Source: an uncultured virus (IMG/VR IMGVR_UViG_3300032320_000771) (lineage: Duplodnaviria > Heunggongvirae > Uroviricota > Caudoviricetes). From it: DNA of 64,000 bases. A program made the translations under genes and the position numbers. Where the stretch lies: IMG/VR virus record IMGVR_UViG_3300032320_000771; one strand, given 5' to 3'. Under the pieces are notes generated by a model. It had not been told where the DNA came from and searched no databases. It worked only from the letters and a program-made list of their open reading frames with translations. Positions 625-52,960 of this stretch are shown in pieces; within the stretch, counting starts at the first letter, position 1, and every line of letters starts with the position of its first letter.

Positions 625-822
625 ATGAAAAAGAAGAAAATGAAAATTGAATACAACGGCCAAGAATTATACATCAACTTTGTATCAGAAGATACCAACT
701 ATGTTATTGTTAGTAAAGACAAAGAAGGTACACTTGGTAAGTTTAAACTTAATGCAACTGAACTTGAAGGAATTGATCTAAACAAACTTAAAAAGTTTAA
801 TAAAAAACCTAAAAAAGTTTAG
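625..822 (+). CDS. small basic hypothetical protein (65 aa)
   Basis: A-rich leader, plausible composition; converges on and overlaps the stop of the 2563 aa gene. Confidence 0.65.
   Translation: MKKKKMKIEYNGQELYINFVSEDTNYVIVSKDKEGTLGKFKLNATELEGIDLNKLKKFNKKPKKV
784..821. promoter_or_regulatory. AAACTT-N3-AAGTTT palindromic element, tandem with a degenerate second copy, at the end of the late operon
   Basis: AAACTT AAA AAGTTT at 784-798 and AAACCT AAAA AAGTTT at 805-820; the same element occurs at 30361-30394 and 37587-37603. Confidence 0.4.
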
Positions 823-6800: not shown

Positions 6801-8510
6801 ATCAGTTCTATAATTAACATCTTCTGTTATTGTTCTTACAAAAATAGCTTCAGGATAAATTTCAAAAAATTTAGAAATAGTTTCTTCTGTACTAAAAGGA
6901 CTTACCCAATCTATATCGTGTAATGGATTCTCATCTGGTCTAAGGATAGTACCCTGTTCAGATAATGCTGTGCTTCCTGTAAGTATAAAACCTTGTTTAG
7001 CTAGTTTTTCTATTATAGATGCTCCAAATGCATCTTTCTTAAGTGCGCTTTCTATACTTACTTGTTGAACTGGTTTCCCATATGCTCCCGGTTTATATAA
7101 GGATGCTGCAATAAATTTTACATTTTGCTGTAAAATATTATTAGTAATGATACCAATGTTTTTATTTATTAATCCAACATTTACAGTTTTAACTTTATTA
7201 AAAAATCTATTTAATAGTTCTCTTATAAGATCAATTAATGACTTAGAATATTTTTTGTCAATTTTGTTTTGTAAATCATTGGCAATTAGTTCTCCAATAA
7301 TTTTAAAATATTTGCTTTTACTTAACTCCTTATAGTCTTTTGTTTTAGACAGCTCTGTAATTATATCTTTAACAAGTTCATTATGTTGCATCATATATGC
7401 AATAAATTCTCCTGCAATGGGTGGGAGACTTTCTTTATTTTTTACATAAGCAATTTTAGATAAGATGTCTGCAAATCCCATTTCATCTATACCTACCATT
7501 TTTTTCATCTCAGTGATATCTTTCACAAGTATTCCAAAACTTGATAAATAAGTTTCTAGAATTTTAGATGCATCATTACCTGCTTTTTCAATAAGATCAG
7601 CATTTACTTCTAATGGGTTATATCTTAGTTTAAAACCCTCATTATACTCTTTAATTTCTTCAGCTGTTAACTCTGACAGATCTTTATTAAATATTTTGTT
7701 TATGATTTCAGGATTAGATACAGCAATGTATTTTTGCATATCTTCTCCTTTAAAATTAGTATCATAACCTATTTTAGAAACAGAATAGCCACTTCTTTCA
7801 AATTTATCAGCAACATCTTTAGGTACAAATGATATAAAATCTAATCCTTTTGAAACTAGATTTGGTAAAGCTTCTGCAAGCAACTCTTTACTTGTAGGAG
7901 AACTATTAACTCTGGTAATGAATGCTGCATTTTCACGATCCCATTGACCAAAGATATATGTGTCTTTATAGTTATATACTTGGTATACAGTTAATAAACT
8001 TTTAAAAGATTCAAATGGTAGAGCTTTTCCTTCCCTTGCTCTATCCATAAGATTCTTATAGTTGTTATATATCTCTCTGATCTTATCTTCTGTTATATCA
8101 GGTATAAGTTCATATAAAGTACTAGCCAATCTTGTTGTAGGCCTTGAAGCCTCAGTTCTCATAAACTGTGTTGGTTCATCCGGTTTTTGTTGAGCTTTGT
8201 CAAACTCAACTTGTATTTTATCAAAAAGAGTTATATTAGGTACTGCCCAATATGTTTTGTATTTAGCATCTCTACGATAAGTAGATCTTAGCCAATCTTC
8301 ATTTTCAATAACATTAATACTAAATAAAAGTTCCCCATCTGGCACAACTAAATTAGGATACTTAGCTTTTGCAAACTCAGTATATTTTTCATTTAATTTA
8401 TCAAACTGCTCTCTATCTAATATTCTATTTAAACCATCTAAAGAAAAGTTATCAATTATATTTTTTCCTTTTAGCTGATTAATTGTATTAATTTGTACTT
8501 GACAAGACAT
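819..8510 (-). CDS. giant virion cargo/ejection protein (2563 aa) with nucleotidyltransferase-like, zincin (HEFAH), LysM and C-terminal hydrophobic segments
   Basis: GFILTGSTAL...HDIDW and K..ARYKD..D (~6455-7030); LHEFAH (6147-6161); LysM HTYTKGETLKQIADKYNITVDELKKRN...GQEIII (~1681-1809); hydrophobic helices near the C-terminus; next to the vRNAP gene. Confidence 0.8.
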   Translation of the reverse strand: MSCQVQINTINQLKGKNIIDNFSLDGLNRILDREQFDKLNEKYTEFAKAKYPNLVVPDGELLFSINVIENEDWLRSTYRRDAKYKTYWAVPNITLFDKIQVEFDKAQQKPDEPTQFMRTEASRPTTRLASTLYELIPDITEDKIREIYNNYKNLMDRAREGKALPFESFKSLLTVYQVYNYKDTYIFGQWDRENAAFITRVNSSPTSKELLAEALPNLVSKGLDFISFVPKDVADKFERSGYSVSKIGYDTNFKGEDMQKYIAVSNPEIINKIFNKDLSELTAEEIKEYNEGFKLRYNPLEVNADLIEKAGNDASKILETYLSSFGILVKDITEMKKMVGIDEMGFADILSKIAYVKNKESLPPIAGEFIAYMMQHNELVKDIITELSKTKDYKELSKSKYFKIIGELIANDLQNKIDKKYSKSLIDLIRELLNRFFNKVKTVNVGLINKNIGIITNNILQQNVKFIAASLYKPGAYGKPVQQVSIESALKKDAFGASIIEKLAKQGFILTGSTALSEQGTILRPDENPLHDIDWVSPFSTEETISKFFEIYPEAIFVRTITEDVNYRTDSYIIAPEGYSVKNFKTVDYVDNKGKVKTIISSYQVVNKKNEVVGTFENVEGAEVVTGVEAKVIDFFSYSNYKKANKNAPFAYTTEAGYVLQLANWKDTFSAKLKWARYKDLWDYNRFIPNINLEEKNKAVEAFGIPLIDINIETLQDARSKRVAEELAKKLSLGLKLGYQNITPEKAAELTRVSPTPYNGEPAFYYAGTVYIVGDNVNINTVLHEFAHPVINGIRIKNRKLFNNLYDALMTTVEGQQIRDNVLRNYPELASNEDMLKSEILTYGLQMSSVNKLTEKIQTEGFESVINKILAAIKDFFRGIFGNKQGISSIDENTTLNQLGTMLLEDEIDLSEYDVTEDDLIQYGKFVTERANELTNSLSAEALEKIINEWYASNQAILNRAKNFKTDKAMRQMVSESIFGSKEEGDSKNLLPEAVSLLRGFQTVTDTSRYSSEELMTLVVDAQEAEVKKLYRQARALVNSIDKIDIIAENMLSDLGKIYKEKNISARNTLSLVNFYKQNSYAWKETIDQFNNIVREAGIKLDKDNLFYKILNKINANLDEIEVIVSQIYKKNNIQFYIELTGPMNMFVEEEFKKNLGLAFKNAYNSPSEREAAIENFYNKVISQEDITDNLEELYNKGVPKDVLARFLNLYQEMISTPEKIQGALTGHARDVSWFNRFMESYTSSNDPIVGSLAIFIQNQRTEITNDFMEESGSFLKSLEKLLPQVNFNKLSVTQIQDMVTFEDTILYFDKETGKPTERKIRTFLNEFGNGYRYAEDLLEYNLAQARISKDQNKIVAAREELRQFKKDYMWQEFVPEYYESDKIYDELIEGYDAATSKRISMEAYSERQAALEDYNNLLSEHNDELSRFENFSAIQAAFRKFQQLRSLNYEDGSPKQDDPKKGIFDLSKAKLLVKVSKAKSKFYEFAPSEKSLETAYNEFVNGLAVEGIQRDTKEFDKKIKEWQRQNITMKYDPAYAEKRKSLTTRLGELQTKMNLPFDIAGTYQEINDLVFTYRDELGQPITPELGEEKIKKIKDLEQSIINFRENLARNTGLTQEELSYLNTLTAMVKKGVNLTSDQKKAMVRLLEKQSKTGLNVTEAAEFQSILSELGDISEKIPTDYYMDALNFNLSRLNKPEVTSDKVDEYINSEEFQDLLDEDELLSQWFEDNHISKKYRDKNKVEIIFQPSYANRITVPVNKKYILTTKVLDNETGETVTFNGVPNAKHSIYRVKNEFRTIPIGESWDNYIGTIIDNKGNHLPRLFVPGNKNSAKDNRFINQRYFDLKRSNNAEFKLLEEMKKFHLSVQKGQSNYSKLYLDMPRFAIKAGDIFQAMQRGKIGERFKTFGEWKNQLLGKSITDFERGYNYDAKNNLVNTDLKGNEITYVPVEGIYNIELENTDADIITGLFKYGMSVKTQGKLLESLPIVESIVDTLEDPANQPKNMEAYSKGIFNVRNLFQNPTKAGAQNNRLGQVRSLLEREYRGQQTGSFEDSNPRLAKWLDIIQGLSTRASLAVNIPSDLKNQFSGYVQSMIESIGGEFVTAKDYALAVPWSSQAMITWASKDAYAVGPGSLSGQMIQRFDPTFTSEDKFGNSISKSIVKDLANGSWMYAHRKFGEMDVAVKLFGAFLHGQKVNQVVNGKQVYIRYVDAFELDKDGLMKLKNGVDVAWDTKSVFHTYTKGETLKQIADKYNITVDELKKRNNVESEIQFEDGQEIIIAKSEKFKAFKNKLQGTSRRLFGAYDRFGQSEGNKFIAYRMFFFMRKWFTPMLTNRWGINTKTASFSQGGERYDWALGRYTKGYYVSAFQTLVRALKSKGSEMAYMTDQEKADLRRTMAEGMMIILTALIASMLLGFDPDDDDKWKKIRERSGAINEDNFNTYGFLVNHFLLLVMGVQAETSAFVPLPKIWGVNLGADDYVKMLTSTSTSWYNTVVLYTQIMSDVLNFITFDDPERYEKDQGPYWWQEKGSLKIWKRLFAIIGFTGGTGDVETVLKNQQASSSRLGN

Positions 8511-8512
8511 TT

Positions 8513-11500
8513 TTATTCACATTTAAATGGATCTTCTTCTAAACCTAATTGATCAAGTATTTCTTGATCTGTTAAACCTTCTGCAATCTCTGTTCTTTTC
8601 TGCATTTCATTATACATTGCTGAGCCTGGATTTATATATCCAAAAGCATCAAACAATCTAGTACTTAAATATACAAATAATTCTTGAGGCATCAATGCAG
8701 GATCTCCAAAACCTGTTTCTGGAAATGCAATTGGTGTAAATTTAGTCTGCCCATCATTGATACTTTGAATATGTGCAATTTCCTCTTCCCATAATCTCAT
8801 AACTTCAGCATATGCTTGTTTAGGAAGATTTTGGAAATTATCACCTAACTTAGTTAATGAAGTTGTAATATTCATTGTCATATTACCGGCAAACTTATCT
8901 AACTCTTGCTGACCACCAAAGTTCTTTTTCTTGTTGCTATAAGTTTCATTTACATTGTTTCTTACAAATACAACAGTTTGATTTGCGTCAACTAATTTTT
9001 CATAGAAATCTTTATCACCTAATTGATCTTGGTACTGAAATACATTTGTTCTATCAGTTTCTTTTAGCTCAAATGGTGTATCTTCAGTTTCAGTAGGTTG
9101 AGCAATACGTGTTTCAGTAGGTTGAGTTGTAACTTCAGGATTTTTACCCCAATAATTGTAACCTTTAGAAGTTTGTCCTGTGGGTACTCCAAGACCTTCT
9201 TGTACTAAAGCTTCTCCAGATTTATTCCAAGATCTATTTGCATCAGCTGTAGAATCCATTATAACAGTTCCGCCATTCTCAAGAACTTCTCTAGCATTTT
9301 CAATTGTTTCAAATATAGCTTTTTCTGTAGCTTTATTGTTACCATTAACACTTACAAAAGCTATTGTAAATTCATCTAGTATACCGTCATAATTTGTTAA
9401 TATTCCAGCTTTTTTAGCATCTTGTTCATATTGATATGTACTAGTACCTTTTGCACCATAACCAATAAAGTGATTTGCTAAACTAGCTTTACCTTGATCC
9501 TTACCTTTTTTATCTACAGATAATTTAAAACCAATAAAACCAAAATCATCTTCAGTAGGTTGAGTTGTAGGTAATAATTTTTGTTGAGCAAGTTTTAATC
9601 CTTCTAGAAAAGCTTTATCAATAACTTCATTTGTATTATGTGTAAACTTTTCATATTGCAAAAGTTTTTTAGTTGCTTCTGAATTTAGATTTTGAATAAA
9701 AGACTCTACAACTAAATCTTTCATAAGTTGAAGATTATCAAATCCTTTAGTAACAGCTTTCCCTCTTATTTTAGTTCCATATCCTCCTGCTTTTACATAT
9801 TTATCATATGTAATTTGATCAAAACTTCCAGATTTTAATGATTGGTAAGCATGTTCTACACTACCATACTCTTTACCTTGATAAGTAAATTTACGTGGTG
9901 CTAGATTAGATAAAATTTTGGTAGATGTTGCTGACTCAGCTTGTCCCCAATATACATTTATAGTTCCCTTTGGTTTAACACTAGTAGATGGTTGAGAAGC
10001 AGCTCCAGTAGGTTGAGTATCAGGAATAACATTTTTAAATGTTTCAAAATCTATATCCATAAGGTAATCTTTGAATCTACCTTTGTTGATATTTTTACGG
10101 CTGTTTACTGAAACAAATTTTTCAAAAAACTGGTCAAGTATATTATTACCGTCTAGTGCTAATGCTGTAGTAAAGGATTCAGACTCTGATTTCATAACAT
10201 CTAAGAAGTTAGTAAAGTCTACAACATTTGTATAGCTTAATTTACTCTTATTAAGACCCGTTTGTAGGAATGCAAAGTTAGACATTAATGCAAACATATC
10301 ACTAATTCTGTCATTCTCATCTTTATCAGCTACTTTCATAACTGATCTATCTGCTAGATTTCTTAGATTCTGAGTATAAACATTAGCTTTATCTGTATTC
10401 ATATCCTTATCAGCAAGATAAACATTAAATACAGTTTTTGTTTTATCAGAATCTAGCTTTAAAACATTAAGTATATCATAGCTGTTTAATAAATTGTCTT
10501 TATGATCTACTAAGAAGTTATTATATCTTGAAGCTAATGCGTTATCCTTGTCCATAAATAAATGGTAGAAGTTATATACATTGTCTAATGCTTTATTAGT
10601 AATGTATCTTTCATAGATAAATCTTCCGAGTGTTCCACCATCTACATCAGGGTTAGCTTCATATAAATCTAAACCTTCTTTTCTAAACCAAGATTTGTTT
10701 ACCATTTCCGTAATGGGATATTCTGATCTTAGAAACTCTCTTTCTACAACAAACCTTGTATATAATTCAAAATTAAGTTTACCATTCTCCATGAATGTAC
10801 GTGGATCTAATGAGTACATATTTCTATTCTCATAGCTATTGTCTTCTTCCGATCCTCTTACCCATGCTTCTGATTCAAATTCTTCTTTTAAAGTTTGTTC
10901 ATCAATGTACATGAACTTAGTACCATCTTTGTTTGCCTTAACAAAGGCACCTCTACTCTTTAATTCAGAAGCTAATGCTGTAGGTATTTCTTTCTTAATG
11001 GTATAAGACATGTAACTGTCTTTGATTTTATATTTTCTAATAGCATTCTGGAAGATCATACTTATTATGTCATTTCTGAACATAGTAATAAATGTATCTA
11101 TCTTTCTTTCCCCTAGTAATTTGTTTGAAGTTTTTCTAAATATTTGTGAATTCTCAATAATGTAGTCACTAATATATTTGTTATATCTTAATTTAAATAG
11201 AGGTCTGATTACAGCAAGAGACATTGGACCATTAAAGAATGAACTAATGATTGAATCATTAAGCATTTTAGTTAATAATTCTTTTGGTATCTTAGTTTCA
11301 TTTGATAATTCATCTATAGCAGCTTCACTTAATTCTATTTCAGAACCAGTAGTTTTTGTAGATGTATCAGGATTAGATGAAAGTTTTAAAGCTGTTAATC
11401 CTGTAATTTGTTGTTCTATTTCTAAAAAGTGTAAGAACATTGCTTTTGCAAGATCACCTTCTTCTGTTGTCAGTTTACCATTATTTTTTGAGAAATTTTC

Positions 11501-14500
11501 AATAAGTGATAACATCTCACGTTCTGTAAATGCTTGTTCCTTTCTATCAGATAGATACTCTTCTGCTAATTCTACACCAGTATCATATATTACTTTAGAC
11601 TTAGCCTTACTTGCTAATTCATTTCTATCAAAATATTTTGCAATAATTCTACTAGCTGCTTCTGATGAAACTGCAGATGGGTAGTCTGCTTTTTTACCTA
11701 ATACTTCTGCATATGTTGATTTTGCTAAAGTCTTCTCTTTAATGTATTCTACAACAAGTGGATTAGATACAAAGTAAATAGCTTCCTTAACTGGTACTCC
11801 AGTTTTTAGTAAGTACATTAATGTAGGTGCAGTTTCATAGTTTCCTTGTATAAAGAAAATCCAAGGATCTTTTTCAACATCCACCCAACCATTGATAAGC
11901 TGTGCTAAAATATCTGCTACTTTATGTTCATTATCAACATCTAAAATATTAGATAAAGAGATGTGGTCTTTACCATCAACTTTCATTTTATGATGTCTTA
12001 AAAATAAATGTGCACTTCTATCTTCTACAGTTTTACCTACTATATGTTTATACTCATTAGGCATATATGCACCCAATGTGTTAAAGATTACATTGAATGT
12101 ATTTTCAATAGCACCCAAACCTAAAGTTCTTTTACCTACAATATTAGACTCATGCTTATATACATTATACAATGTCTCAAGAACTCTTGTAGGGCTTATG
12201 ATTTTTTTATCTTTATTTTTTGGGTCTATATTTTTTTCCGTCATCTTATTAGCATACGGATTATACTTCATCACATACTGAGCAAGTTCAGCAGCAATTG
12301 GCTCTAAAATATAGTTACTGTTAGGCGTAATTAAAGATGAATAACTCTCAGGTAATTCAAGAATTGATACCATACTTTCTATGATTTCATTTTCTAATCC
12401 TGCTTTTTGTTCAGCAAAGAACATATCCATTTCACCTATTGATGCATTATCAGATTTTAGGCTGTTATATTGATCTTTAAACTCATTATAAGTTTTATAG
12501 TTTGCCTTTTTAACTTTACCATTTTCATCTAAGTTAGTCATGAACAAGGTAAGTTTATCAATATCAAAGTCAGCTCCTGACTTAGCAACAATCTCTGCTG
12601 GTGGTATAATAATATTTCCAGCCTGTGGTGGTAAGAAATGATATACTTCAGCAAATTCCATAGAGTTAAGTCCCTGAACCGGAATCCTAGGACCAACTAA
12701 TGTTATTGCTTTTCTGTTAGCTTCATTATCTGCATCTAACCAAGCATCATCTTTTATTTTTTCATTTAGTCTAGCTAATGAAGTATCCATGTCTAGTGTA
12801 CCATCTTGAAGGTATACACCAATAGTTTCTCCTTTTGAGTATTCTAGATTAAATAGTTTTACATAATCACCCTGCATAGAGATCATAATTTTCATTGCTG
12901 CAGTAAAGCCATTTGCTTTTTTGTGATATGTTGGTAAGAAATTAGTCCCTACATATTTTTTAATAGCAGCATCTATCTCTTTCTTTTTATAAGAAAATTC
13001 ACCTGGAGTTTTAGCATAATCTTTAAAGAAAGCAGAAGACATTTGTACTAATGCTTCTCCTTTTACTTTTTGCTTAATTACTTTTTTATTTATTATTGAT
13101 AAAAGTAATTTTTCAATTTTAGCAGACTCCGGGTGGAAAGATAAATCATTTACAAGTGAATTATCTTTTTCATATACATCTATGAAATCTATTAGATTAT
13201 CACTTAGTAAATCATCTTTCTCTAAGTTAGCTCTAATTACACTTGTTAGTTTTTCCATACTAGCACTACTAGTAGGAATATACTGACCGTCTACTTCTTC
13301 ATAACCTAGTTGATTTAATAATTCTAGTTTGTGAAGATTTGTTAAAAACTCAACTCTTCTAATATATTCATTTGCTCTTTCGGTAATTAGAGCTTTGTTC
13401 TTTGTATTTTTTATTTCTCCATTTTCATATAGACCTTCAAGAATCATCTTTCTAATCTGAGTAGAGAATATAGTAACACCTTTGTAAGATGAGTTTATTT
13501 CTGTTTGATTTTTAAGATACTCAGCATAAATTGTATTTGGAGTAAAAGTAACTTTATCATTAAATGAACCATCTTCATTAAAGACATTATCACCTTTACC
13601 AATATGAGCTACTTTAGATCCTGTTTCAAATGTTACATAGTCTATTTGTTGTTCTAACATTTTAACTTGTAAATCATAAAGTTGATCTCCTGGTTTAGCT
13701 AATCCTGGCACTAATGGTGCAAGTGAGAACTTATGGAAAGATGTTACTGGAAGACCTGTTGATTCTATATTTCCAAAGTACTGTAATTTATATGGAGGGA
13801 AGAATTGAATAGAGTCTTCTAAAGTAATGTTTTCTCCTCTAGAAACTTTTTTATAAAGATCTTCTTGTTGATCTGACCAATTACCTTCTAACCATTTGAA
13901 GTTTCTGTATGCTTCCAGAGTCACATAACCTTGACCATCAGCCACTTTCATATTTTTATATTCACCTAATACCTTTTCTGCAATTCTTTTAGCTTTAGCA
14001 GCATCTCCGTATCTTTCAGTATAAGTTTGAGTTAACTCTTTAAGATACTCATTATAGTATACGGATGTTAGTTTAAATTCTTTCATGATGGCAGTTTTAA
14101 ATGTACCATCATACTTTCTATATTTTATTTTATCCTTTTCTGATCTAGTTTGATTTAAGAAATCAATGTATACTTTTGGAAGCATGTTATTTACAAACTG
14201 CATTGCAAGAGCATCAGCTCTAAAACCTTTACCTCCAGAACCTAAACCAGCATTTCTTTTATGGAACTCTTCTTTTTTATGATTGTATTGTGCTAGATCC
14301 CCATATGCAAGAATAACAGTTTCATACTTATGAATAAATGAGTTGTATGTATATGCTTTAGTTAAAAGTTCATTTACATTTTCTCCTTTTTTAAAGTATT
14401 CAGCAGCTAGAGCCGCATCTACATATTCATTTTCCTCAAGTCTTTCAAAGTTTTCTCTGGTTAATAGATTAAAATATTCAATGATATCTCCTTCTACCTC

Positions 14501-17500
14501 ATCTCTTAACATGATGTCTTCATTTAGTATATCCATCATACTAAAATCTGTTTCATTATTATCTACTGCATCCTCAATAATTTTGTATAATTTTTCTTGA
14601 GTCTCTTTAGTAAGAATGTCATCAAATAAAGTAAAAGCTTCACCGGCCATTACCTCTCTATCTAATTTATCAGTAACCTCCTCATTGTAACCAGCATAGT
14701 TCTGGAACTTTTCTTTATCACTTTTAAATCTAAAAATTCTAAGAGCTTCTCCTGATAGGTAACCCATCATTATTTTTGCTCCTTCAATTTCTCCATCTCC
14801 TCCTTTTGAGAATGCATCAATATCTATATATAAATGTTTGCTTTTGTTTTTATTTTTTCCAGCATAAGTTTTAATTTCAGTTTCTTTACTTACAGTAAGA
14901 CCCATTGCCATATTTTTAGAGGCATGTCTCATGAATTCTTCAACGCCATTTAACAACATTGTGTGGAATTCTTGTAAGTATTTAGATACAGCATCCATAG
15001 AAGATGTATTACTTCCTGATGTATCATCTTGATCTTTACTTATAAACTGTGTACCTGTAATATTTTGAAGAAGTAGTTTAGCATTTTTCCTTTTTGTACC
15101 ATATTGTTCTGGTTTTCTAGGATTAAACTTCATATAAAAAACACTGTTTAGCAATTGTGAAAACATAACCTGTGTATTGTTGTCTTTTGCTAACCAATGC
15201 ATATGTTTAAACATTGGTGATGTTGTAAGTTCTTGGTATGTCTCAGCTTTATTAATTGATGTTACTACTCTTGTTATAGTGTTATCTACAAAGTGTTCCC
15301 ACACTCTATTTCTTTCAGCATTAAGAACACTGAAGTTAGAAAAGCCATCTGAAAATTCATTTTGAATTTCTGCTAAAACTCTTATCCTACCCTGTACATC
15401 AAAACTTTCATTTTTATCTGTACGTAATTTTACATCTAAACCTTCAGCTAAATACTTCAATGGGTTTCTTCTAAATTCATCTTTAGCAAGTTCATTAGTA
15501 GATTGGTTAACTACTTTTAATGCATCCAACATTATATCAAGACCAAACTCATTTGCAAAGTTTAGTTTCTTGTTATAAACAATATTATATATTGCCGGAC
15601 TTGACAAATCCATTTCTATACCCAATGCTTTTAAGAACTCAACTGAGTCTTTAGCTGTCATGTTTTTCCGCTTACTGAATCTTTGAACAACTTCATTAAG
15701 CTTTAACATGTTATTATCTGTACCAGGTTCCTTTTCAAGGTATTTATTTATACCCGGATCCCCTAAAATAAAGTTTGATTCCCAAGCACTAGTAACGGCA
15801 TAGACATCCATACTAGCTTTAGATAGTTTTGTTTGATATTTATCTTTATCAACCTTATCAATATTTAATTGAATGTATCTAATTCTTGGCTTCTTAAGAT
15901 CTTGCCAAAAGTTAGTTTCAACTCTATACTCAATTGGATTTTTATAACCTCCACCTTCAATGTCTATATGTGCCATTTGAGGTAGAAGATTCATTAACTG
16001 TTCAAGTTCTGGATAGTTCTCAATGTTATCTGAAATTCTTTGGTACATCTCATAGATATCATATGAACCTTCTAGAATTTTAGCAAGTCTGTTCCACATG
16101 TCATGGACACTTTCTAATTTAGGTAATCCAAAGAAGTCTTTTTCATATGCTACAGAGCCATCTTCATTTCTTACTACTTCACCTTTAACTTTTAAAGGCT
16201 TGAATATTCCAGATAAAAGCATTAATGTTTCTTCACTAGCTAACTCTTTTGATGAGAATGAATTACCACTTGCATCTTTAAATTGTTTTAAAGCCTCTAT
16301 TGAAGTTGTATCTTCTATTTCATTATAAGATTCTTTAAGGGTTGTGAATCTAGATTTTTTTAAGTGGTAGGCTACAATACCGCTTTTTTGTTTGCCTTCT
16401 ATGGATTGACTAATATCCCCATAATTAGTTATGATTTTGGATAAAAGGTCAACAATGTTTTTTAGTTTTATTTCTTGAGCTGCTAAATCAACATCAACTT
16501 TTTCTGTGTTTAAATTTTTTAAAGCTGTTGTTTTATATTCATCAAGATAATATTCTTGTAGCTCTAAAAATTTATCATAAATGTTTTCGTAAAGTGCAGT
16601 TCTATTTTTTAAACTTTTTGTAGTTTTTAAATACCCAATGGTAGTATCCGCCTGAATGTTATAGTTTTGAAATTCTCCAGCTGATAAAGCATCCATTGCA
16701 TTTGAAATTAACATGCTTTCATCTGCTGTAAATTCTACTACATTTTTGTTAGCTTTAATTGGTTGAATATTTCTATCTCCTCTATTTAATTTAGTGAACC
16801 TTACATTTTGAGTTGAAGCATTTAAGCTTTGGAATAGTCCTTTTTTAATAGCTTCCTCTGGTTTGTTTGTTCTAAGTACATCAAACATCTCTCTTACTCT
16901 AGGAATGTCTCTTGGACGAGTCATGTCCTTCCTTGTTATTCCTCCATAAGCCCATCTTAAAAAGTCACTAATTTTTTGAAAAATGTTAGCTAACCAAGTA
17001 GGGAGGGATTCTTTAAACTTCTCAGACTTCATAAAAGATCTAAAGTCTTCTGCAATGTCCTCTTCTATATCAAAGTATTCAGCATCTTTCCATTTATTTA
17101 CTTTCTTAACTTGCTCATATAAATTTTCTTGTTCTTCTTTAGTTAAGAATAACTGTGTAAAAGCGTGCCATGCTTCATGATATATATCAATATTGTTACC
17201 ACCTTTCCATAAAGTAATACTTGCATTCTCAAATGTAGCTACTGCATCAGAGTTAGCTACTTCAGTTAGTCTTTGTAATAAAGCTATCTTATCTTTATTA
17301 TCTATTTTTACTTGTGATAAAAAAGAGTTTTCCCACCAGTCTAATGCTTTATCTTTTGCTTTCTTAGTAGTAAAGATTTTATTAAGGAAGCTGTTTAATT
17401 TTGCACTTCTTTCCAAATAAGAACTTCTACCTGGTTTTTTTAAAATATCTGTAATAGAATTTTGTATACCTATTACATCTTGTTTTTTTGGTGGTTGTGG

Positions 17501-19882
17501 TTTTGTTTCAGGAACCACTTCATTTATTACAATGTCAGCATCTTGTACTTGATTTCTTCTATTAATTAAATCAACAAGAACATCTATATGAGATCTATAT
17601 TTTGAACCAGAAGGCTTGTAGTAAATAAAAGTTGCATTATCTAACCAACCTTTTGCAATGCTATCTAAAATCCATTGTCTTCTTTTTTGTTCAGTTTTTT
17701 TATGAGCCTTACCTGTTAACCAGTCTTCATAATTTTTTACTGCTGTTTCAACATCTGTAACAACAGTAACATTTTTATTTAAAGAATCTTTCTGTGTTGA
17801 CCAAGGATTACCAAAGTGTTCTGTAAAAGGAATTACCGGAGATAAGCCTCTTGCAGGCCTCATACCCCATGTACCTTTGCCTTCATTGAAGGCATCTTTT
17901 GCAGAATTATATTTTGTATAGTTTGTAACTTTTGCTTTAGGTTCTGAAGTAGTACTTTTCTTAGGTTTATTATCTTTATCAACTACTTTTGGCGGACCAA
18001 CTTCATATAATTTTTGACCTTCTTCAAGAATCTCTGGAATACTAAAAGTTAAGTAAGAATTTAAACCTGAAAAATATCTTGATGTTTCATCAGGATATTC
18101 TACAAGTAAATCACTTTTAACAAAATCAAAGTAGTCTTCTTCTACTTCTTCTATATTACCTTTTTCATTTATTACATAATCGGTAAAGTCTTTACCCATT
18201 AAAGCGTAATTAAAATTTAATGCGGCACTGTATATTTTTTTAGGACCTTTCTGTTTTGCATAAAGTTCCCAATTAGTTTTTGCTTCTAGAAGGTGTTTAT
18301 ATATTAACTCTCTTGTCTCTGGTGTATATAAAACATCTTGCTCTATTGGATCTTCTCCTTTTATTCTTATTTCCAATATTGCTTGACCGTTCTCATCTGT
18401 AGTTTCCTTAACAGTTATTCCATCTGGATTAGTATCTAATCCTTCACTTGGTTTATTATTAATAAAATTTTCAAAGAAAACTCTTCTTTGCTTTGGTGTT
18501 AACTCACGACCCTTAAGTTTGCCTGTTGTAGTTAGTATGTCTGCAATATGTCCTGCTAAACCAGCTGATATATTAGATCTTTGAAGAACCAACATTTGAT
18601 CAATAGTTGCACCAGGTCTAGTTACATTAATTTTAATTGAATATCTTCCACTTCTCAATGGTTGTAATTCAAAATCATTTATGTTTAATCCTGTTTCTGC
18701 AAATGGAACTGGTTTAACATCTTCATTTACTAATCCAAAAGAACCACCCTCAATATTTAATAAAACAGGTTTACCTGAAGATTCTACATCTTCTCTTAAT
18801 TTAAGAAGCTTATTAAATAAAGTTGTTTGCTTTAATAATATTTGCGCTGTTTCTACTGCAAGAAGTTCTGGCGTTATTCTTTTAATAATCCCAGCTTCTT
18901 TTTTCTGTTTAAGAGATGTTTCAGCAGCTTCTCCTGCAGGCACTAAAGATGTTTTTTTACCATAGGCACCTTGTAAATATAATTTACCACCTTCAACAAG
19001 TGGCTTTCTTATCCATTGATATACTCTTCTTCCACCAGTACCACTTTTATTTATGCTTCCATCTTCATTAAAGTATACTTCATTACCTTCAGTGTCTGTG
19101 ACAACTGCAATAATACCGGTAGTACCAGGATTCTTTTTTTGAAACTCTAGATCTGATTGAGTAAACATTGTAGGATCTGCATCTGAAACTCTCATTGCTT
19201 TAAGAGCTAAAGAAACAGGTTCATCTTCTCCATATAATACTTCTGTATTACTTTCTGAAGTTTGTCTTGCTATATATATTATATCTCTTATAACTTCACC
19301 AAACATCTTTTTTTCAGGGTCTCTTACATTTTTTGGCTGATTAGAGTTTGGATCTACTTTAATTGCTTCTTGTCCAGTAGTACCATTTGGATAAACTACT
19401 TTTGCACTGTATTCAGCAGCACTCCATCCTGAGTGGTCATAAGGTTTAGTATCATCTACTTCAGGAGCTGACGGAGAATCTAATTCTTTTTCTACTTCTT
19501 TTTTTGCAACCTTTTTTGTTTTAATTGTTGGTTTAACAAGTATCTCAACCTTTTTTATATCAGAATACTCATTGGCAAGTGTTGGAATATCAATGAATAA
19601 CTGTGTGTTTGTTTTAAGAATATAGTCTCTTGCTTTAGGTCTTGCCGCTACTAATCCAAATATTTGAGGCACTGCTTGAGCAAAGTATAATGCTTTCTCT
19701 TTTTTATCTTCTTCTGACTCAAATCCTTCATTAGGCATTTTATTTAACTCAGTGTAGAGTTTTTTCATAATACCTTTTATATCAATAGCAGTTTTATTTT
19801 TACCAGATATTCTATCTGATATTTCTCCATATATATAACCATATAAAAATTCTACTGCAGGTCCGTTTAATTCACAAGCCAT
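8513..19882 (-). CDS. virion-packaged DNA-dependent RNA polymerase (crAss/phi14:2 gp66-like), 3789 aa, polyvalent
   Basis: Catalytic loop KSGADFDIDKL (DFDID at 12557-12571), preceded by GPRIPVQGLNSM; also ADGQGY, FHKFS, FETGSKV and WVDVEKDP. Zincin YHEAWH (17165-17179) plus accessory DUF4326-like and NADAR domains. Confidence 0.92.
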   Translation of the reverse strand: MACELNGPAVEFLYGYIYGEISDRISGKNKTAIDIKGIMKKLYTELNKMPNEGFESEEDKKEKALYFAQAVPQIFGLVAARPKARDYILKTNTQLFIDIPTLANEYSDIKKVEILVKPTIKTKKVAKKEVEKELDSPSAPEVDDTKPYDHSGWSAAEYSAKVVYPNGTTGQEAIKVDPNSNQPKNVRDPEKKMFGEVIRDIIYIARQTSESNTEVLYGEDEPVSLALKAMRVSDADPTMFTQSDLEFQKKNPGTTGIIAVVTDTEGNEVYFNEDGSINKSGTGGRRVYQWIRKPLVEGGKLYLQGAYGKKTSLVPAGEAAETSLKQKKEAGIIKRITPELLAVETAQILLKQTTLFNKLLKLREDVESSGKPVLLNIEGGSFGLVNEDVKPVPFAETGLNINDFELQPLRSGRYSIKINVTRPGATIDQMLVLQRSNISAGLAGHIADILTTTGKLKGRELTPKQRRVFFENFINNKPSEGLDTNPDGITVKETTDENGQAILEIRIKGEDPIEQDVLYTPETRELIYKHLLEAKTNWELYAKQKGPKKIYSAALNFNYALMGKDFTDYVINEKGNIEEVEEDYFDFVKSDLLVEYPDETSRYFSGLNSYLTFSIPEILEEGQKLYEVGPPKVVDKDNKPKKSTTSEPKAKVTNYTKYNSAKDAFNEGKGTWGMRPARGLSPVIPFTEHFGNPWSTQKDSLNKNVTVVTDVETAVKNYEDWLTGKAHKKTEQKRRQWILDSIAKGWLDNATFIYYKPSGSKYRSHIDVLVDLINRRNQVQDADIVINEVVPETKPQPPKKQDVIGIQNSITDILKKPGRSSYLERSAKLNSFLNKIFTTKKAKDKALDWWENSFLSQVKIDNKDKIALLQRLTEVANSDAVATFENASITLWKGGNNIDIYHEAWHAFTQLFLTKEEQENLYEQVKKVNKWKDAEYFDIEEDIAEDFRSFMKSEKFKESLPTWLANIFQKISDFLRWAYGGITRKDMTRPRDIPRVREMFDVLRTNKPEEAIKKGLFQSLNASTQNVRFTKLNRGDRNIQPIKANKNVVEFTADESMLISNAMDALSAGEFQNYNIQADTTIGYLKTTKSLKNRTALYENIYDKFLELQEYYLDEYKTTALKNLNTEKVDVDLAAQEIKLKNIVDLLSKIITNYGDISQSIEGKQKSGIVAYHLKKSRFTTLKESYNEIEDTTSIEALKQFKDASGNSFSSKELASEETLMLLSGIFKPLKVKGEVVRNEDGSVAYEKDFFGLPKLESVHDMWNRLAKILEGSYDIYEMYQRISDNIENYPELEQLMNLLPQMAHIDIEGGGYKNPIEYRVETNFWQDLKKPRIRYIQLNIDKVDKDKYQTKLSKASMDVYAVTSAWESNFILGDPGINKYLEKEPGTDNNMLKLNEVVQRFSKRKNMTAKDSVEFLKALGIEMDLSSPAIYNIVYNKKLNFANEFGLDIMLDALKVVNQSTNELAKDEFRRNPLKYLAEGLDVKLRTDKNESFDVQGRIRVLAEIQNEFSDGFSNFSVLNAERNRVWEHFVDNTITRVVTSINKAETYQELTTSPMFKHMHWLAKDNNTQVMFSQLLNSVFYMKFNPRKPEQYGTKRKNAKLLLQNITGTQFISKDQDDTSGSNTSSMDAVSKYLQEFHTMLLNGVEEFMRHASKNMAMGLTVSKETEIKTYAGKNKNKSKHLYIDIDAFSKGGDGEIEGAKIMMGYLSGEALRIFRFKSDKEKFQNYAGYNEEVTDKLDREVMAGEAFTLFDDILTKETQEKLYKIIEDAVDNNETDFSMMDILNEDIMLRDEVEGDIIEYFNLLTRENFERLEENEYVDAALAAEYFKKGENVNELLTKAYTYNSFIHKYETVILAYGDLAQYNHKKEEFHKRNAGLGSGGKGFRADALAMQFVNNMLPKVYIDFLNQTRSEKDKIKYRKYDGTFKTAIMKEFKLTSVYYNEYLKELTQTYTERYGDAAKAKRIAEKVLGEYKNMKVADGQGYVTLEAYRNFKWLEGNWSDQQEDLYKKVSRGENITLEDSIQFFPPYKLQYFGNIESTGLPVTSFHKFSLAPLVPGLAKPGDQLYDLQVKMLEQQIDYVTFETGSKVAHIGKGDNVFNEDGSFNDKVTFTPNTIYAEYLKNQTEINSSYKGVTIFSTQIRKMILEGLYENGEIKNTKNKALITERANEYIRRVEFLTNLHKLELLNQLGYEEVDGQYIPTSSASMEKLTSVIRANLEKDDLLSDNLIDFIDVYEKDNSLVNDLSFHPESAKIEKLLLSIINKKVIKQKVKGEALVQMSSAFFKDYAKTPGEFSYKKKEIDAAIKKYVGTNFLPTYHKKANGFTAAMKIMISMQGDYVKLFNLEYSKGETIGVYLQDGTLDMDTSLARLNEKIKDDAWLDADNEANRKAITLVGPRIPVQGLNSMEFAEVYHFLPPQAGNIIIPPAEIVAKSGADFDIDKLTLFMTNLDENGKVKKANYKTYNEFKDQYNSLKSDNASIGEMDMFFAEQKAGLENEIIESMVSILELPESYSSLITPNSNYILEPIAAELAQYVMKYNPYANKMTEKNIDPKNKDKKIISPTRVLETLYNVYKHESNIVGKRTLGLGAIENTFNVIFNTLGAYMPNEYKHIVGKTVEDRSAHLFLRHHKMKVDGKDHISLSNILDVDNEHKVADILAQLINGWVDVEKDPWIFFIQGNYETAPTLMYLLKTGVPVKEAIYFVSNPLVVEYIKEKTLAKSTYAEVLGKKADYPSAVSSEAASRIIAKYFDRNELASKAKSKVIYDTGVELAEEYLSDRKEQAFTEREMLSLIENFSKNNGKLTTEEGDLAKAMFLHFLEIEQQITGLTALKLSSNPDTSTKTTGSEIELSEAAIDELSNETKIPKELLTKMLNDSIISSFFNGPMSLAVIRPLFKLRYNKYISDYIIENSQIFRKTSNKLLGERKIDTFITMFRNDIISMIFQNAIRKYKIKDSYMSYTIKKEIPTALASELKSRGAFVKANKDGTKFMYIDEQTLKEEFESEAWVRGSEEDNSYENRNMYSLDPRTFMENGKLNFELYTRFVVEREFLRSEYPITEMVNKSWFRKEGLDLYEANPDVDGGTLGRFIYERYITNKALDNVYNFYHLFMDKDNALASRYNNFLVDHKDNLLNSYDILNVLKLDSDKTKTVFNVYLADKDMNTDKANVYTQNLRNLADRSVMKVADKDENDRISDMFALMSNFAFLQTGLNKSKLSYTNVVDFTNFLDVMKSESESFTTALALDGNNILDQFFEKFVSVNSRKNINKGRFKDYLMDIDFETFKNVIPDTQPTGAASQPSTSVKPKGTINVYWGQAESATSTKILSNLAPRKFTYQGKEYGSVEHAYQSLKSGSFDQITYDKYVKAGGYGTKIRGKAVTKGFDNLQLMKDLVVESFIQNLNSEATKKLLQYEKFTHNTNEVIDKAFLEGLKLAQQKLLPTTQPTEDDFGFIGFKLSVDKKGKDQGKASLANHFIGYGAKGTSTYQYEQDAKKAGILTNYDGILDEFTIAFVSVNGNNKATEKAIFETIENAREVLENGGTVIMDSTADANRSWNKSGEALVQEGLGVPTGQTSKGYNYWGKNPEVTTQPTETRIAQPTETEDTPFELKETDRTNVFQYQDQLGDKDFYEKLVDANQTVVFVRNNVNETYSNKKKNFGGQQELDKFAGNMTMNITTSLTKLGDNFQNLPKQAYAEVMRLWEEEIAHIQSINDGQTKFTPIAFPETGFGDPALMPQELFVYLSTRLFDAFGYINPGSAMYNEMQKRTEIAEGLTDQEILDQLGLEEDPFKCE
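9087..10018. repeat. dispersed direct repeats encoding TQPT(E/G)/SQPSTS linkers in the vRNAP C-terminal region
   Basis: TTCAGTAGGTTGAGTTGTA is identical at 9113-9131 and 9551-9569; GTTTCAGTAGGTTGAG at 9087-9102 and 9111-9126; CAGTAGGTTGAGT at 10006-10018. Confidence 0.85.
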
Positions 19883-19883
19883 T

Positions 19884-22800
19884 TTAACACTTATTAAAAA
19901 TATTTTTTACTTGAGCTAGTCTTTCTTCAGATGAAAGATTTTCACTTTCTTGTTCAATTTTATCTAAAGCATCTGGATCTTTAGATAAATCCGATACATT
20001 TTTTTCTGTTGATTTTACATTCTCTTTTGTTTGTGGAGTAACTTGAATTTCATCCACAGGTTTTGCTTCATCAGTAGGTCTCATAAAATTATCATATATT
20101 TCTTGTTCAGTAAAGGTATAACTTTTCTTCCGTATAGGACTGAAAAGTTCAGCTGTTCTTGCTTCTAAATCTACACTTTTTAAAATAAATGTTTGATTTG
20201 TTTTTTTGAATACTCCAATAGGCTCAACGTTAAGGAATATATCACCTTCTGAAAACGTTTCTAGTTTTTCATCTGCCTCTGTAAACTCTGATACAATTTG
20301 GGATACAACTTCTAAAAATGGATCTTGATCTTCTACATTAGTTTCAACATCTGTATCTTCTAAAGCAGCTAGTTCTGCATCATACTTAGCATTGATTTTT
20401 TTTGACATATTATCATCTCCTTTATATGCCTCTTCTTTAGACATAAGTGCAGTAAGATTTTCATAATTTTTATTAAGTTCTTCTTGTCTTCTCCTTTCTA
20501 TGTCAGCTTTAGCATCTGTAGAAACAGGAGTTGTAGAAGGTACACTTATACCTTGCGTCCTTTGTCTTGACTCTTGGATTCTCTTCTCAAGATCTTCTCT
20601 TGATATTGTTTGTCCAGAAACTCCCTCTGTTGTTGCTCCGGCAGACTTCTGAATAAGAGGTACATTTGTGCTCTGCTGTACTTTTGCTCGGGCTTCAAAT
20701 TCTTTTCTTGAGGTTTTTGTGATTTTTCCATTTTTGAAAAATTTAATTGCTGTTAAATTATTAAGTGTTTCATTTACTGCAGCTATTACATTGTCTACAG
20801 GAACTGTGGATCTTTGTTCATTAGCTAATCTACTTTGATATTCTTCTAGTTTAATGATTAATTCAATGCCCCAATCTTCAATTTCTTTTTGTTTAGCTGG
20901 AGTAAGATTATCAAGTTTTCCATCAAATACATCTTCAACATCTTTTGTTGTACCATGTTCAAATAGAATTCTATCTATTTCTTTTGTAACTGATTCAGAT
21001 TCAGACAGTTGAGCAATCAAGTTAACTTGATCTTCTCTATCTGTAGGTTCGGTTGATGATACTTGTTTTTGGAATTTATTTGGTAATCTATTTAATGCAA
21101 AGATAAGATCATCTGCATTTCCACCTCTTCTGGTGCGCTTTTTATTTTTATTAATTAAGTCAGTTTTTAAACTGTTTAGTCTGTTTAATTCAAAAGATTT
21201 TTTGCGGATCTCACGTTCAATGTTTTTATTTTTACCTTCTTTCTTTTGTTTTTGTAAATCAGATATCTCTGTATTTAGTTTATTGATCTGCTCCTGTGTT
21301 TTAGTTATTTCATTATCATTAGTGTAATAAGTTAATGAAACTATAGCACCTGCGGTATCTCTATTTACAGTATACTTAATACCATTGATCTCTGCAGTCT
21401 TTTCACTCTTGTCTAAGAACCTAGCATTAATTGTAGTTCCTGCAATCTGACTAACTTGTCCAATACTTTCTACTTGAGCAATAGGAGATAGTCCAACAGA
21501 AACAATATTTATATTACCATCCTTAACATTTTTACCTGAAAGATTGATATCTATAATAGACTTTGTTCCATCTTCATCTATTTCTATAGAGAAGCCTCCA
21601 TCTAAATTGTTTATTAATGTACCAATTTTACCTTGATACATAATAGTTTGATTTAGAAACTGATTAAGAGTTTGTTTTGCAGGATCACTAATAACAATAG
21701 CATCTTCTGGTACTTGTTCTTCTTCAGATTCTATTTCTGGAAGTGTTTCAATTTCTGCAGGTCCAGTTCTTTCAAAGCCAAATCTTTGCATTGTTGCATC
21801 ATCAAGAGGCTCTAGAATAATAAACATACCATTTTGACTAAGTTTATTATATTTAGATAGGTCAGATGTTGGTTTTGAAAGTTTTTCAATATAACCATCC
21901 ATTGTAACTACCATCTCAATTGGAAATAAAAGGATTGAAGTATCTAAACCACTCATGTTGTATATATTATTTCTGTATATACTTTGTTGAGCAGTAAAGT
22001 ATGTCTTTTTATTTCCTTTATTTTTTACCTTATTTCCATTCTCATCTGTAATTTCTTGACCATTCTTCTTTAGTGCATAAGGCGCACCTAAGTTTCTCCA
22101 TGTGTTTTCTTGAGCCGCTTTTATATCTACAACAGCTAAGTTTCCATTTGTATCAATTAAAAGCAAATCTAGTTCACCAGTTACTCCTTTACCCCCTCTT
22201 GCATTTCTATCAAAAACTTTAACATTACCAGAAAATAATTGATAGCCACCATCTATCATGTTTCTTCTAAGTCTAGTTACAGAACCAGTAATAGGATGAA
22301 ACAAGAAGTTATATGCGTCTTTTGACATTATATCAGAAACCTTAACATTTTTATCTCTGATACTAACAGTTGAATCATATGGTACCCCCATAAATCCACC
22401 ATTAGGATTAAGAGTTAAGAACTGTCTAATTACAGCATCAATATTAATTCCAGCATCACTTGTTTCTTTAAAAGCAAATCTTGAAACAACCTTCTCTAAA
22501 TTTTCTATGCTTTGATCTTGCATCAAACTTTCTTTGATACCAGCTAATTTTTTATCAGACTTAAATTGTTTATATGTACTAAGGTTAACTAAGAAAGCAT
22601 CAATCCTTTCTTCTAATGTACCAATTGGATTATCAAGTACTACTTCTCTAAATACATTTTGAATGCTGTTGTCATCAAGTCTATTATATGAAAAAGGATC
22701 TTTTTCTTCCAGCTCCATTTCTATTTGAGTAGCAACTTCTGTAGCTCTTTCAGGTCTTGGATCTTCAGGTCTTGCATCTCTAAAAGTTCTAAACTCAAAT

Positions 22801-30100: not shown

Positions 30101-30345
30101 TCAAGTCCAGAAACTCTTTTAAGATTAAAGTCTATTTGTTTTAATAACTCATCTTTCTTTTTAATATTTTGATCATGAGTTAAATCTGCACCATATAGTT
30201 GACCATATAAATTATTTAATGCATTCCAGTTTGTATCATACTGGGTTTGTTTTGTTTGCAACAAGTTTGCATAAAAATTTAAATCAGGCTGAAAAGGCTG
30301 ATAATCTGGTATATAGTCTGTGACTCCTTGTAAGTACGTTGCCAT
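27187..30345 (-). CDS. putative virion cargo/internal protein (1052 aa)
   Basis: Long ORF in the cargo cluster, helical/coiled-coil, no Cys seen; N-terminus YIPDYQPFQPD resembles crAss-like cargo proteins (recall). Confidence 0.7.
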   Translation of the reverse strand: MATYLQGVTDYIPDYQPFQPDLNFYANLLQTKQTQYDTNWNALNNLYGQLYGADLTHDQNIKKKDELLKQIDFNLKRVSGLDLSLEQNVNQAMQVFRPFYEDKYLIKDMAYTKNWKNTYANATALLNSPDEKQAAKYWDEGIRGLEYRRQMFKDATLDETLSIADAQYTPKVDVVKEYMDFAKKYDIGMVTQTPDGMYLVRKKNGEQLMPGLQQIFWAQYANRPDMQKFYKEKAFVERMDYANQNAEKFGGNKLEAEKQYIKEKYDWLKNLSAQQDQKAKDNLNTSKNLQANVQRDVATGNVNPMQKSYLERLNEMLNVSQDVENYTSDLNTQLNPGVGTSTVPAQEKDILANMELARLKVDAAMASYSAGSDINSAAGSYAYSNYEIEYKPDAVSIAKFREASANARLSKSHEYKLLEQQEAERLKRQTKYQEAMVAKGRAYYKADGSFEMNPQNSGFDLIFHGKKDESGQTSEGIQFDKLNQQVFDEVINEKVGPGVNSMMTYINALVNSENGNQFTNQQLGQVLNHFRSGDPTIDKIIDQGKKYPNQNKAKQIWNEIYSEYSKGDKDAFVKKVTKYGDIFHLNWLMKQFATRHNGNQIAQQLVNDPTIFELEQLGRKAEAMEITRANNAKKIKDAFTENLKFSADKLKGSGINVTNEQINTAVDRIMNEYVASGYDWDAVRKNSDELNRMISGDLGASFIKNTENKRDRSWWEYIPGVYGAEAIYDAVTGNRVNVPANWVTDILDKSYVELASNNNPDKGLHSFVQTVSRGGDMVSIASQNQTVKVDSDFGGDFGHQAALQAIRDALNLPQGADFNFAFSNNLPAEGEGDGLQDDLARSFLSTLYSQMGKSDLPDFFLSTSRVARESNKLGSTTFNVPRSVVEKVMKSLEGDYEAADLARAQDKIVQNGITVIAPHSYWTHKLWNTSTPTATEIVLSNQDIKYSHPQNAGRYTLSKINGVPGVDYGAKIVTKIMDQNGNAVEYEQFMDMNKKSGQKIDDIERDAWALLTKQNEYNQQMFKYFYQTNNTEAIENAIKNFGINPNDPLWKY

Positions 30346-37586: not shown

Positions 37587-37603
37587 TAAACTTATAAAGT
37601 TTA
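37587..37603. promoter_or_regulatory. perfect palindrome TAAACTT-ATA-AAGTTTA
   Basis: 7-bp inverted repeat with 3-nt spacer, overlapping the stop of the 1454 aa gene and 17 nt upstream (on the minus strand) of the TTAGTATATT motif. Confidence 0.55.
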
Positions 37604-52958: not shown

Positions 52959-52960
52959 AA

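Follow-up and report, generated by a model that had tools for sequence, protein, structure and literature searches.

Cysteines confined to the facing ends of giant cargo proteins suggest a reversible end-to-end link in crAss-like phages

The stretch of DNA considered here, called the window, comprises 64,000 nucleotides (nt) of an uncultured virus of the Caudoviricetes (IMG/VR record IMGVR_UViG_3300032320_000771) and, as its Pfam matches to ring and muzzle proteins indicate, represents the virion module of a crAss-like phage. Three consecutive giant genes in it encode proteins A, B and C, which, judged by homology, are the RNA-polymerase cargo block and the counterparts of gp47, gp50 and gp49 of phage crAss001. 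A direct count over their open reading frames (ORFs) gives four cysteines in 8793 amino acids (aa), none of them internal and all of them at the ends with which one protein faces the next. Sequence comparison indicates that this terminal-cysteine rule is kept order-wide across the Crassvirales. The cysteine pair strictly follows the protein boundary: it is absent at fusions, moves with a moved break and is gained at a split. These patterns suggest that A, B and C would be joined at their ends into one threadable chain by a reversible link, most probably a disulfide, an explanation that is considered fairly probable.

Cysteine Placement in the Cargo Block

The three genes and their four cysteine codons are located as follows.

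19884-27182, minus strand: protein A (gp47-like cargo), 2432 aa from the invariant methionine at 27180-27182; the first ATG, at 27209, gives 2441 aa
8513-19882, minus strand: protein B, putative virion RNA polymerase (vRNAP; gp50-like), 3789 aa, with a BLASTP match to gp50 and a GGDFDIDK block
819-8510, minus strand: protein C (gp49-like cargo), 2563 aa, with a HEFAH motif and a LysM domain
19887-19889, minus strand: TGT codon of the C-terminal cysteine of A, the last residue (...IFNKC, then stop) and the only cysteine in A
19874-19876, minus strand: TGT codon of Cys3 of B (MACEL...)
8519-8521, minus strand: TGT codon of Cys3788 of B, the penultimate residue (...EDPFKCE, then stop), with Cys3 the only cysteines in B
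8502-8504, minus strand: TGT codon of Cys3 of C (MSCQV...), the only cysteine in C

The cysteine counts and positions had been noted in the initial annotation, and the computational count confirmed every one of them. It likewise found no cysteine at the two outer termini, that is, the N-terminal end of A and the C-terminal end of C. The other 14 window ORFs of at least 150 aa contain 173 cysteines in 10,691 aa (1.6%), with a maximum of 7.9% in a 738-aa protein. The description of the tail proteins of the operon as very rich in cysteine is also borne out (3-5%, up to 7.9%). At the rate of the other window ORFs, about 142 cysteines would be expected in A, B and C, and at a proteome frequency of 0.865% (PMC11445570) the Poisson probability of four or fewer is 1e-27. 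The chance that four given cysteines land one per 3-residue facing end is about 3e-13. In A, B and C together, only 4 in-frame codons are TGT or TGC, against 104 occurrences of these triplets in one off-frame and 504 in the other, and 1575 of the 8793 codons are one substitution away from a cysteine codon. This abundance indicates that composition is not the cause and that cysteines have been removed by selection.

In the window, only 1-2 nt separate the genes at either junction, and close relatives preserve the DNA there well. Signals in the DNA or RNA of such tightly coupled junctions, or chance, might account for the pattern. Such an origin is scarcely credible. In crAss001, gp50 and gp49 share one strand and gp47 is encoded on the other, yet gp47 keeps its C-terminal cysteine, an arrangement that excludes a cause at the DNA level. 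Moreover, TGC is used for 3 of 28 terminal cysteine codons in 12 genomes, which together with the strand arrangement of crAss001 indicates that selection acts on the protein. The distance from the cysteine to the start or stop codon varies as well, and chance is opposed by both probabilities given above.

Conservation Across Relatives

A check for the junction cysteines in relatives had been suggested with the initial annotation, and they proved to be conserved in the samples studied, among them 120 homologues per protein, 68 non-redundant loci and 11 annotated genomes. The homologues came from three database searches, with A, B and C, and share 39-99% identity. Those of B start with MAC in 117 of 120 cases, carry a cysteine in the last three residues in 119 and lack internal cysteines in 113. 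A cysteine lies within the last five residues of 115 of the 120 homologues of A and within the first five residues of 108 of the 120 homologues of C. The sequences that miss the rule have odd starts or ends and are seemingly truncated, mis-started or frameshifted; in two of those of C, the cysteine stands at position 7, after a second methionine. A further set, 150 representatives of clusters at 50% identity, was obtained by an index-free search with the polymerase core; both end cysteines are present in 120 of them, only the C-terminal one in 24, only the N-terminal one in 4 and neither in 2. Internal cysteines number 42 in the 523,134 aa of these proteins.

In addition, a tally that does not depend on gene calls was made from 157 viral IMG/VR loci, reduced to the 68 by removing those that share more than 20% of sampled 25-mers. 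Protein B was located by homology to the core of the window protein, and each end was scored independently, not conditional on the rule. All four facing ends carry a cysteine nearly without exception: the C-terminal end of A in 55 of 55 visible cases, the N-terminal end of B in 54 of 55, the C-terminal end of B in 68 of 68 and the N-terminal end of the protein after B in 68 of 68. The outer ends behave differently, with a cysteine at the N-terminal end of A in none of 10 visible cases and at the C-terminal end of the protein after B in 5 of 66, or none of 61 where this protein is unsplit. Only 18 internal cysteines occur in 441,917 aa. In locus L064, the single miss at the N-terminal end of B, the reading frame starts with MVNC but is broken soon afterwards at ten consecutive A (about 5070-5270), either through an assembly error or at a slippery site. 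The cysteine stands at residue 3-6 from the N-terminal end and 0-9 residues from the C-terminal end, as taken, for positions only, from an earlier tally that was partly conditional on the rule.

Fusions, Moved Breaks and Splits

The 11 annotated crAss-like genomes, which belong to several families, were examined for the placement of cysteines relative to protein breaks. Two conserved motifs of B serve as landmarks in this comparison.

12557-12571, minus strand: DFDID, catalytic motif of the two-barrel vRNAP, residues 2438-2442 of B
17165-17179, minus strand: HEAWH, zincin-like motif, residues 902-906 of B, invariant in alignments

Where A, B and C are separate (crAss001, cr85_1, DAC17 and phi14:2), both cysteine pairs are present. 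In crAss001, gp47 has one cysteine, 2 residues from its end, gp50 has Cys5, another 8 residues from its end and one internal, and gp49 has Cys5 only. Phage phi14:2 shows exactly the pattern of the window, as the only cysteine of gp078 is its last residue, those of the vRNAP gp077 are Cys3 and the penultimate residue, and that of gp076 is Cys3 (GenBank numbering; the vRNAP is gp66 in bioRxiv 10.1101/2020.03.07.982082). In genomes with A and B fused (cr1_1, cr109_1, cr118_1 and Fpv1), only the B-C pair occurs, and the fused protein has no N-terminal cysteine. With B and C fused (p-crAssphage and crAss002), only the A-B pair is left: A keeps its C-terminal cysteine, and the BC protein lacks one at its C-terminal end and starts with MSC, in crAss002 at the second methionine, residue 33 of the annotated start.

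The pair also follows breaks that have moved. The spacing from HEAxH to DFDxD is about 1450-1850 aa in all genomes holding both motifs; the break between A and B lies after HEAxH in crAss001, cr85_1, p-crAssphage and crAss002, where the HExxH is part of A, and 900 aa before HEAxH in the window. Consistently, residues 843-951 of B match residues 2099-2204 of crAss001 gp47 (BLASTP E 1.4e-8); the boundary shift is read from this one match and the motif positions, the other segments being too diverged for profiles. In each case of a moved break, the cysteine pair is found at the actual break, and no cysteine occurs at the position of the break of the other lineage. Breaks have been gained as well, since C is split in 5 loci into a first piece of 242-655 aa, which matches the N-part of C and carries only Cys3 and a last-residue cysteine, and a second piece of about 1100 aa, which matches the C-part and has an N-terminal cysteine in 5 of 5 cases and no C-terminal one in 4 of 4. 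A classing of the 150 representatives by fusion type, from projected core offsets, was too noisy to use.

By these sequence comparisons, pairing of the C-terminal end of A with the N-terminal end of B, and of the C-terminal end of B with the N-terminal end of C, is the only scheme that fits all architectures. The view that the four cysteines form two pairs across facing ends in gene order is therefore supported across the Crassvirales genomes compared, including those with fusions and moved or gained breaks. Pairing of the two ends of B with each other was ruled out, because fusions would then leave an orphan cysteine.

Each terminal cysteine might instead have its own role, such as attachment to the portal, DNA or lipid, or a processing signal, with pairing being incidental. 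Lone cysteines near the C-terminal end without an obvious partner, in p-crAssphage gp47 and crAss002 gp30, would suit such roles, and nothing specific does otherwise. This is nonetheless very improbable, given that the outer ends lack cysteine (0/10 for the N-terminal end of A, 0/61 for the C-terminal end of the unsplit last protein), that both members of a pair are lost at fusions and both gained at splits, and that in AB- and BC-fused genomes the remaining two cysteines always face each other.

Two observations concern individual genomes. The proteins with a lone cysteine, p-crAssphage gp47 (locus L011, 5588-8161) and crAss002 gp30 (L014, 6393-8066), are the smaller cargo protein of the Intestiviridae; their cysteine lies 1-7 residues from the C-terminal end, and the next protein has no N-terminal cysteine. 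The gp52 of cr109_1 (L008, 23463-27608) has an in-frame stop 7 codons before its annotated end under translation table 11, which could be recoding or an annotation slip.

Comparison with Known Ejection Systems

The closest precedent comes from cyanophage A4 (Anabaena phage A-4L), in which cryo-EM revealed that Cys1715 of gp27 is joined to Cys5 of gp26 by a disulfide (PNAS 2025, PMC12002296). In the A-4L genome, gp27 (1717 aa) has a single cysteine 2 residues from its end and gp26 (1114 aa) has a single Cys5. The window and its relatives share this motif, as both systems consist of consecutive, otherwise cysteine-free ejection proteins with a lone cysteine at each facing end. However, A4 has one such pair only and is a T7-like phage without a virion RNA polymerase. 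Its bond is presented as stabilising a pentameric ring locally and not as making a chain or as a general rule, and the accessible text of that paper makes no link to gene fusion or splitting (PMC12002296). Profiles of four terminal 400-aa regions did not find the A4 proteins at E of 10 or less, and no homology to gp27 or gp26 was detected. The resemblance between A4 and crAss-like phages would thus reflect a shared mechanism and, as far as was seen, not shared ancestry.

The A4 structure raises the question of whether the link in crAss-like phages could instead, as a structural staple, hold together a pre-ejectosome or cargo body folded inside the capsid, fixing stoichiometry and architecture without any ordered thread. 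The disulfide between gp27 and gp26 serves in A4 to stabilise a helix-in-cleft contact of the pentameric ring above the portal (PMC12002296), and the cargo of crAss001 is predicted to be folded and alpha-helical (PMC10172136). The cysteines of the cargo block, however, lie 0-9 residues from the chain ends, in tails of varying sequence, and fused versions swap the link for a plain peptide bond, so that chain continuity fits better than a specific folded interface. With no detectable homology of A4 and crAss proteins as a further objection, the staple is regarded as unlikely.

The facing cysteines might also bridge a metal (Zn, Fe, Ni or Cu) or only help non-covalent docking of the tails, with no disulfide being formed. 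An N-terminal end of the form NH2-x-Cys, left after removal of methionine, can chelate metal with its free amine. A metal bridge would work in the reducing cytoplasm and in the anoxic gut, and it had been allowed for in the initial annotation. It is nevertheless judged improbable: there is one cysteine per end, at a varying position (3-6 from the N-terminal end, 0-9 from the C-terminal end), no conserved histidine or second cysteine lies nearby, and the sole solved case with the same motif, that of A4, is a disulfide.

A second comparison is provided by the ejection operon of the Schitoviridae (N4 gp50-52 and DEV gp71-73), which, like the window, combines an ejected giant virion RNA polymerase with strong cysteine suppression; N4 gp50 and DEV gp71-73 have no cysteine, which was ascribed to their passage past periplasmic disulfide-forming enzymes (PMC11445570). 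The Schitoviridae proteins are essentially cysteine-free including their ends, in contrast to the window, where one cysteine per facing end is retained. The N4 polymerase is a single polypeptide and belongs to a different polymerase family, being T7-like.

Cultured crassviruses resemble the window in their homologous proteins, gene neighbourhood, DFDxD and zincin-like motifs and terminal-cysteine rule. The window proteins are much larger than the cultured ones, with B at 3789 aa versus 2180-2412 aa and the A|B break about 1000 residues earlier. In crAss001, mass spectrometry identified gp47, gp50 and gp49 as virion cargo that must partly unfold to pass the tail, and the order and mechanism of cargo ejection were left open (PMC10172136). 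The preprint on phi14:2 states that the cargo proteins are in the virion, names DFDxD as the catalytic motif of the vRNAP and reports that all three proteins are fused in some phages (bioRxiv 10.1101/2020.03.07.982082). The fused polyproteins (AB in Suoliviridae and Fpv1, BC in p-crAssphage and crAss002) contain the same domains in the same order, with a peptide bond in place of the cysteine pair. Cleavage of the fusion into its components was proposed in that preprint; the window would do the reverse, joining separate products.

A literature search, with subscription journals and supplements outside its scope, found no description of terminal cysteines or of covalent linkage of crassvirus cargo, and the word "cysteine" occurs zero times in PMC10172136 and in the phi14:2 preprint (bioRxiv 10.1101/2020.03.07.982082). 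Disulfides are described for the crassvirus only in the tail and portal vertex in the accessible text of PMC10172136. The claim that the arrangement was without known description thus stands for the crassviruses, but not more generally, as the A4 disulfide (PMC12002296) and the cysteine suppression of N4-like phages (PMC11445570) are precedents. What is already known is therefore a disulfide between consecutive ejection proteins and a cysteine-suppressed background; what is new is an order-wide rule by which cysteines track protein boundaries and which would chain giant proteins, three or four in number, with the virion RNA polymerase among them.

Possible Mechanism and Points Against It

The proposed course of events is as follows. 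Proteins A, B and C are probably packed and injected by the phage, their presence in the virion being suggested by homology, and they would pass the tail into the host at least partly unfolded. Internal cysteines would be selected against, as in other ejected phage proteins, while one cysteine would be retained at every facing end, no more than a few residues from the terminus. The C-terminal cysteine of A would bond with Cys3 of B, and the penultimate cysteine of B with Cys3 of C; these bonds would most likely be disulfides, formed in the assembled or released particle. The product, a thread of about 8800 residues without branches, would correspond to the polyproteins that other crassviruses encode as fusions, and because the links would lie at the extreme ends, the chain would be linear and could be threaded through a narrow channel. 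A single thread would be delivered at 1:1:1 and in a fixed order, after which thiol reductants of the host cytoplasm would free the subunits. Inter-protein disulfides do occur in crAss001 virions, namely in the gp57 dimer, between the tail hub and ring proteins and between R1 and R2 (PMC10172136). For the cargo we infer the bond, together with its chemistry, timing and purpose, and the linkage interpretation of the initial annotation as a whole appears partly supported by the sequence patterns.

Several points weigh against this course of events. The N-terminal cysteine is absent in 24 of the 150 representatives of B, of which the one traced (P0402) starts 79 nt from the contig end and is truncated by it. 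The homologue sets and the 68 loci form one broad clade and do not count as independent events. Depletion of cysteines is looser in gut crassviruses, where internal cysteines number 5 in cr109_1 AB, 7 in p-crAssphage BC, 4 in cr108_1 C and 3 in DAC17 B, and this weakens the argument that internal cysteines are avoided for threading. In cr108_1, which is of the AB type, a break at 22606|22607 (L007, 12903-24493) has no cysteine pair, a 290-nt gap and a non-ATG start of the second piece; it may be an interrupted gene (intron or frameshift) or a true exception. Neither thioredoxin nor an Erv-type oxidase was found in the contigs of two relatives (87% and 57% complete), a weak test since the Erv control matched nowhere. 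Phage assembly proceeds in a cytoplasm that is reducing, and the surroundings of gut phages are anoxic, which calls into question whether and when a disulfide would form. Finally, the cargo of crAss001 is unresolved in the map (PMC10172136).

Features of Proteins A, B and C

Beyond the landmarks of B given above, three further features were located in the cargo proteins.

6147-6161, minus strand: HEFAH, zincin-type motif in C, residues 784-788, with H784, E785 and H788 invariant in 40 sequences
1716-1799, minus strand: LysM domain in C, residues 2238-2265 (Pfam PF01476, E 7.8e-6, above cut-off)
9098-10012, minus strand: variable cysteine-free insert of 305 aa in B, residues 3291-3595

BLASTP against crAss001 matched A with gp47 (E 3e-11), B with gp50 (E 2e-20) and C with gp49 (E 3e-8). 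Protein B also matches crAss genes annotated as "putative RNA polymerase" (tblastn), and its GGDFDIDK block, which includes DFDID, is invariant in 40 sequences; its assignment as the virion RNA polymerase follows from this block together with the gp50 match and the matches to the annotated polymerase genes. Profiles of segments of A, B and C compared with 24 annotated crAss proteins gave matches only for the polymerase core, the N-terminal module of C and the C-part of C. The profile of the N-terminal 105 aa of C matches residues 1-96 of phi14:2 gp076 (E 1e-25). A common N-terminal docking module of about 100 aa in B and C was rejected (hhalign probability below 1%), and hhalign found no similarity between the C-terminal 100 aa of A and of B. 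Searches of PDB sequences with A, B and C gave marginal matches only, to LysM and to a PNGase-like stretch; the latter covers residues 1423-1493 of B (about 15404-15616, minus strand), which marginally match yeast peptide:N-glycanase (E 0.002).

The insert in B had been labelled DUF4326-like and free of cysteine. The absence of cysteine is correct; the label is not supported, as the best Pfam matches, Phage_30_3 (E 0.015) and NADAR (E 0.11), fall well short of their cut-offs. In a relative with 99% identity (P0001), 146 aa occupy the same place. About 100 aa of the insert are 48.6% identical to a "toprim domain" protein of Bacillus phage AgentSmith, and B homologues carry various other inserted domains here (Pfam). 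The position looks like a site of cargo-domain swapping.

Gene Setting

All genes of the window are on the minus strand. The five large proteins and then the three giants A, B and C are encoded downstream of the ring and muzzle genes, on the same strand, which is the position of the RNA-polymerase cargo block in Crassvirales. Two features of this setting are listed.

47451-54672, minus strand: CrAss_Ring_1, CrAss_Ring_2 and crAss_MUZ (Pfam, all above cut-offs)
27187-30345, minus strand: cysteine-free 1052-aa protein directly upstream of A (ORF cysteine count), a candidate further cargo protein that would not be cysteine-linked

The 1052-aa protein is likely a further cargo protein. Its tail, ...NDPLWKY, is similar to that of B (...EDPFKCE) and to those of B homologues (...N[DN]PL[KNS]C), and relatives in L017 (1395-4559) and L018 (1164-4313) have zero cysteines and end with ...NDPLWKY and ...NNPFWK. 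This tail may be a cysteine-less version of the docking tail of B.

Other proteins of the module have features of their own. The 1827-aa protein at 41968-47448 (minus strand), which adjoins the muzzle gene, contains a SET (lysine methyltransferase) domain at residues 64-143 (Pfam E 3.3e-9, above cut-off), which is unusual for a phage structural protein. No family matched the 738-aa protein at 57347-59563 (minus strand), whose 58 cysteines (7.9%) put it at the far end of the scale from the cargo block; the tail proteins near it hold 3-5%. The 1454-aa (37601-41965, minus strand) and 1258-aa (33766-37542, minus strand) proteins have two cysteines each, at 69/80 and 931/944, spaced 11-13 residues apart. 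Similar close pairs occur in crAss001 gp45 (390/398), DAC17 gp54 and phi14:2 gp080 (369/378), and in C1-type cargo they may mark a metal site or a short loop of local extent.

Significance for Crassviruses

Crassviruses are the most abundant human gut phages, and how podophages transport megadaltons of protein, including an RNA polymerase, through a narrow tail ahead of the DNA is an open question in the field. A conserved tether would make the question of cargo ejection testable with simple experiments on cultured crassviruses. It connects two facts published separately, the cysteine suppression of N4-like phages and the single disulfide of A4. In practical terms, the rule offers a sequence criterion by which metagenomic crAss-like genomes can be searched for ejected cargo and for the true boundaries of genes.

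Such a tether would also explain why the cargo genes are so freely fused and split. A broader proposal, tentative and rated somewhat below an even chance, is that crassviruses, and perhaps podophages more widely, mend every gene break in the ejected block post-translationally, by terminal disulfides. The result would be a redox-cleavable pseudo-polyprotein, threaded in a fixed order and at a 1:1:1 ratio, from which the active RNA polymerase would be freed only in the reducing cytoplasm. The link would then act as both a tow-rope and an arrival sensor, and fusion, fission and stitching would be interchangeable ways of keeping the cargo in one chain.

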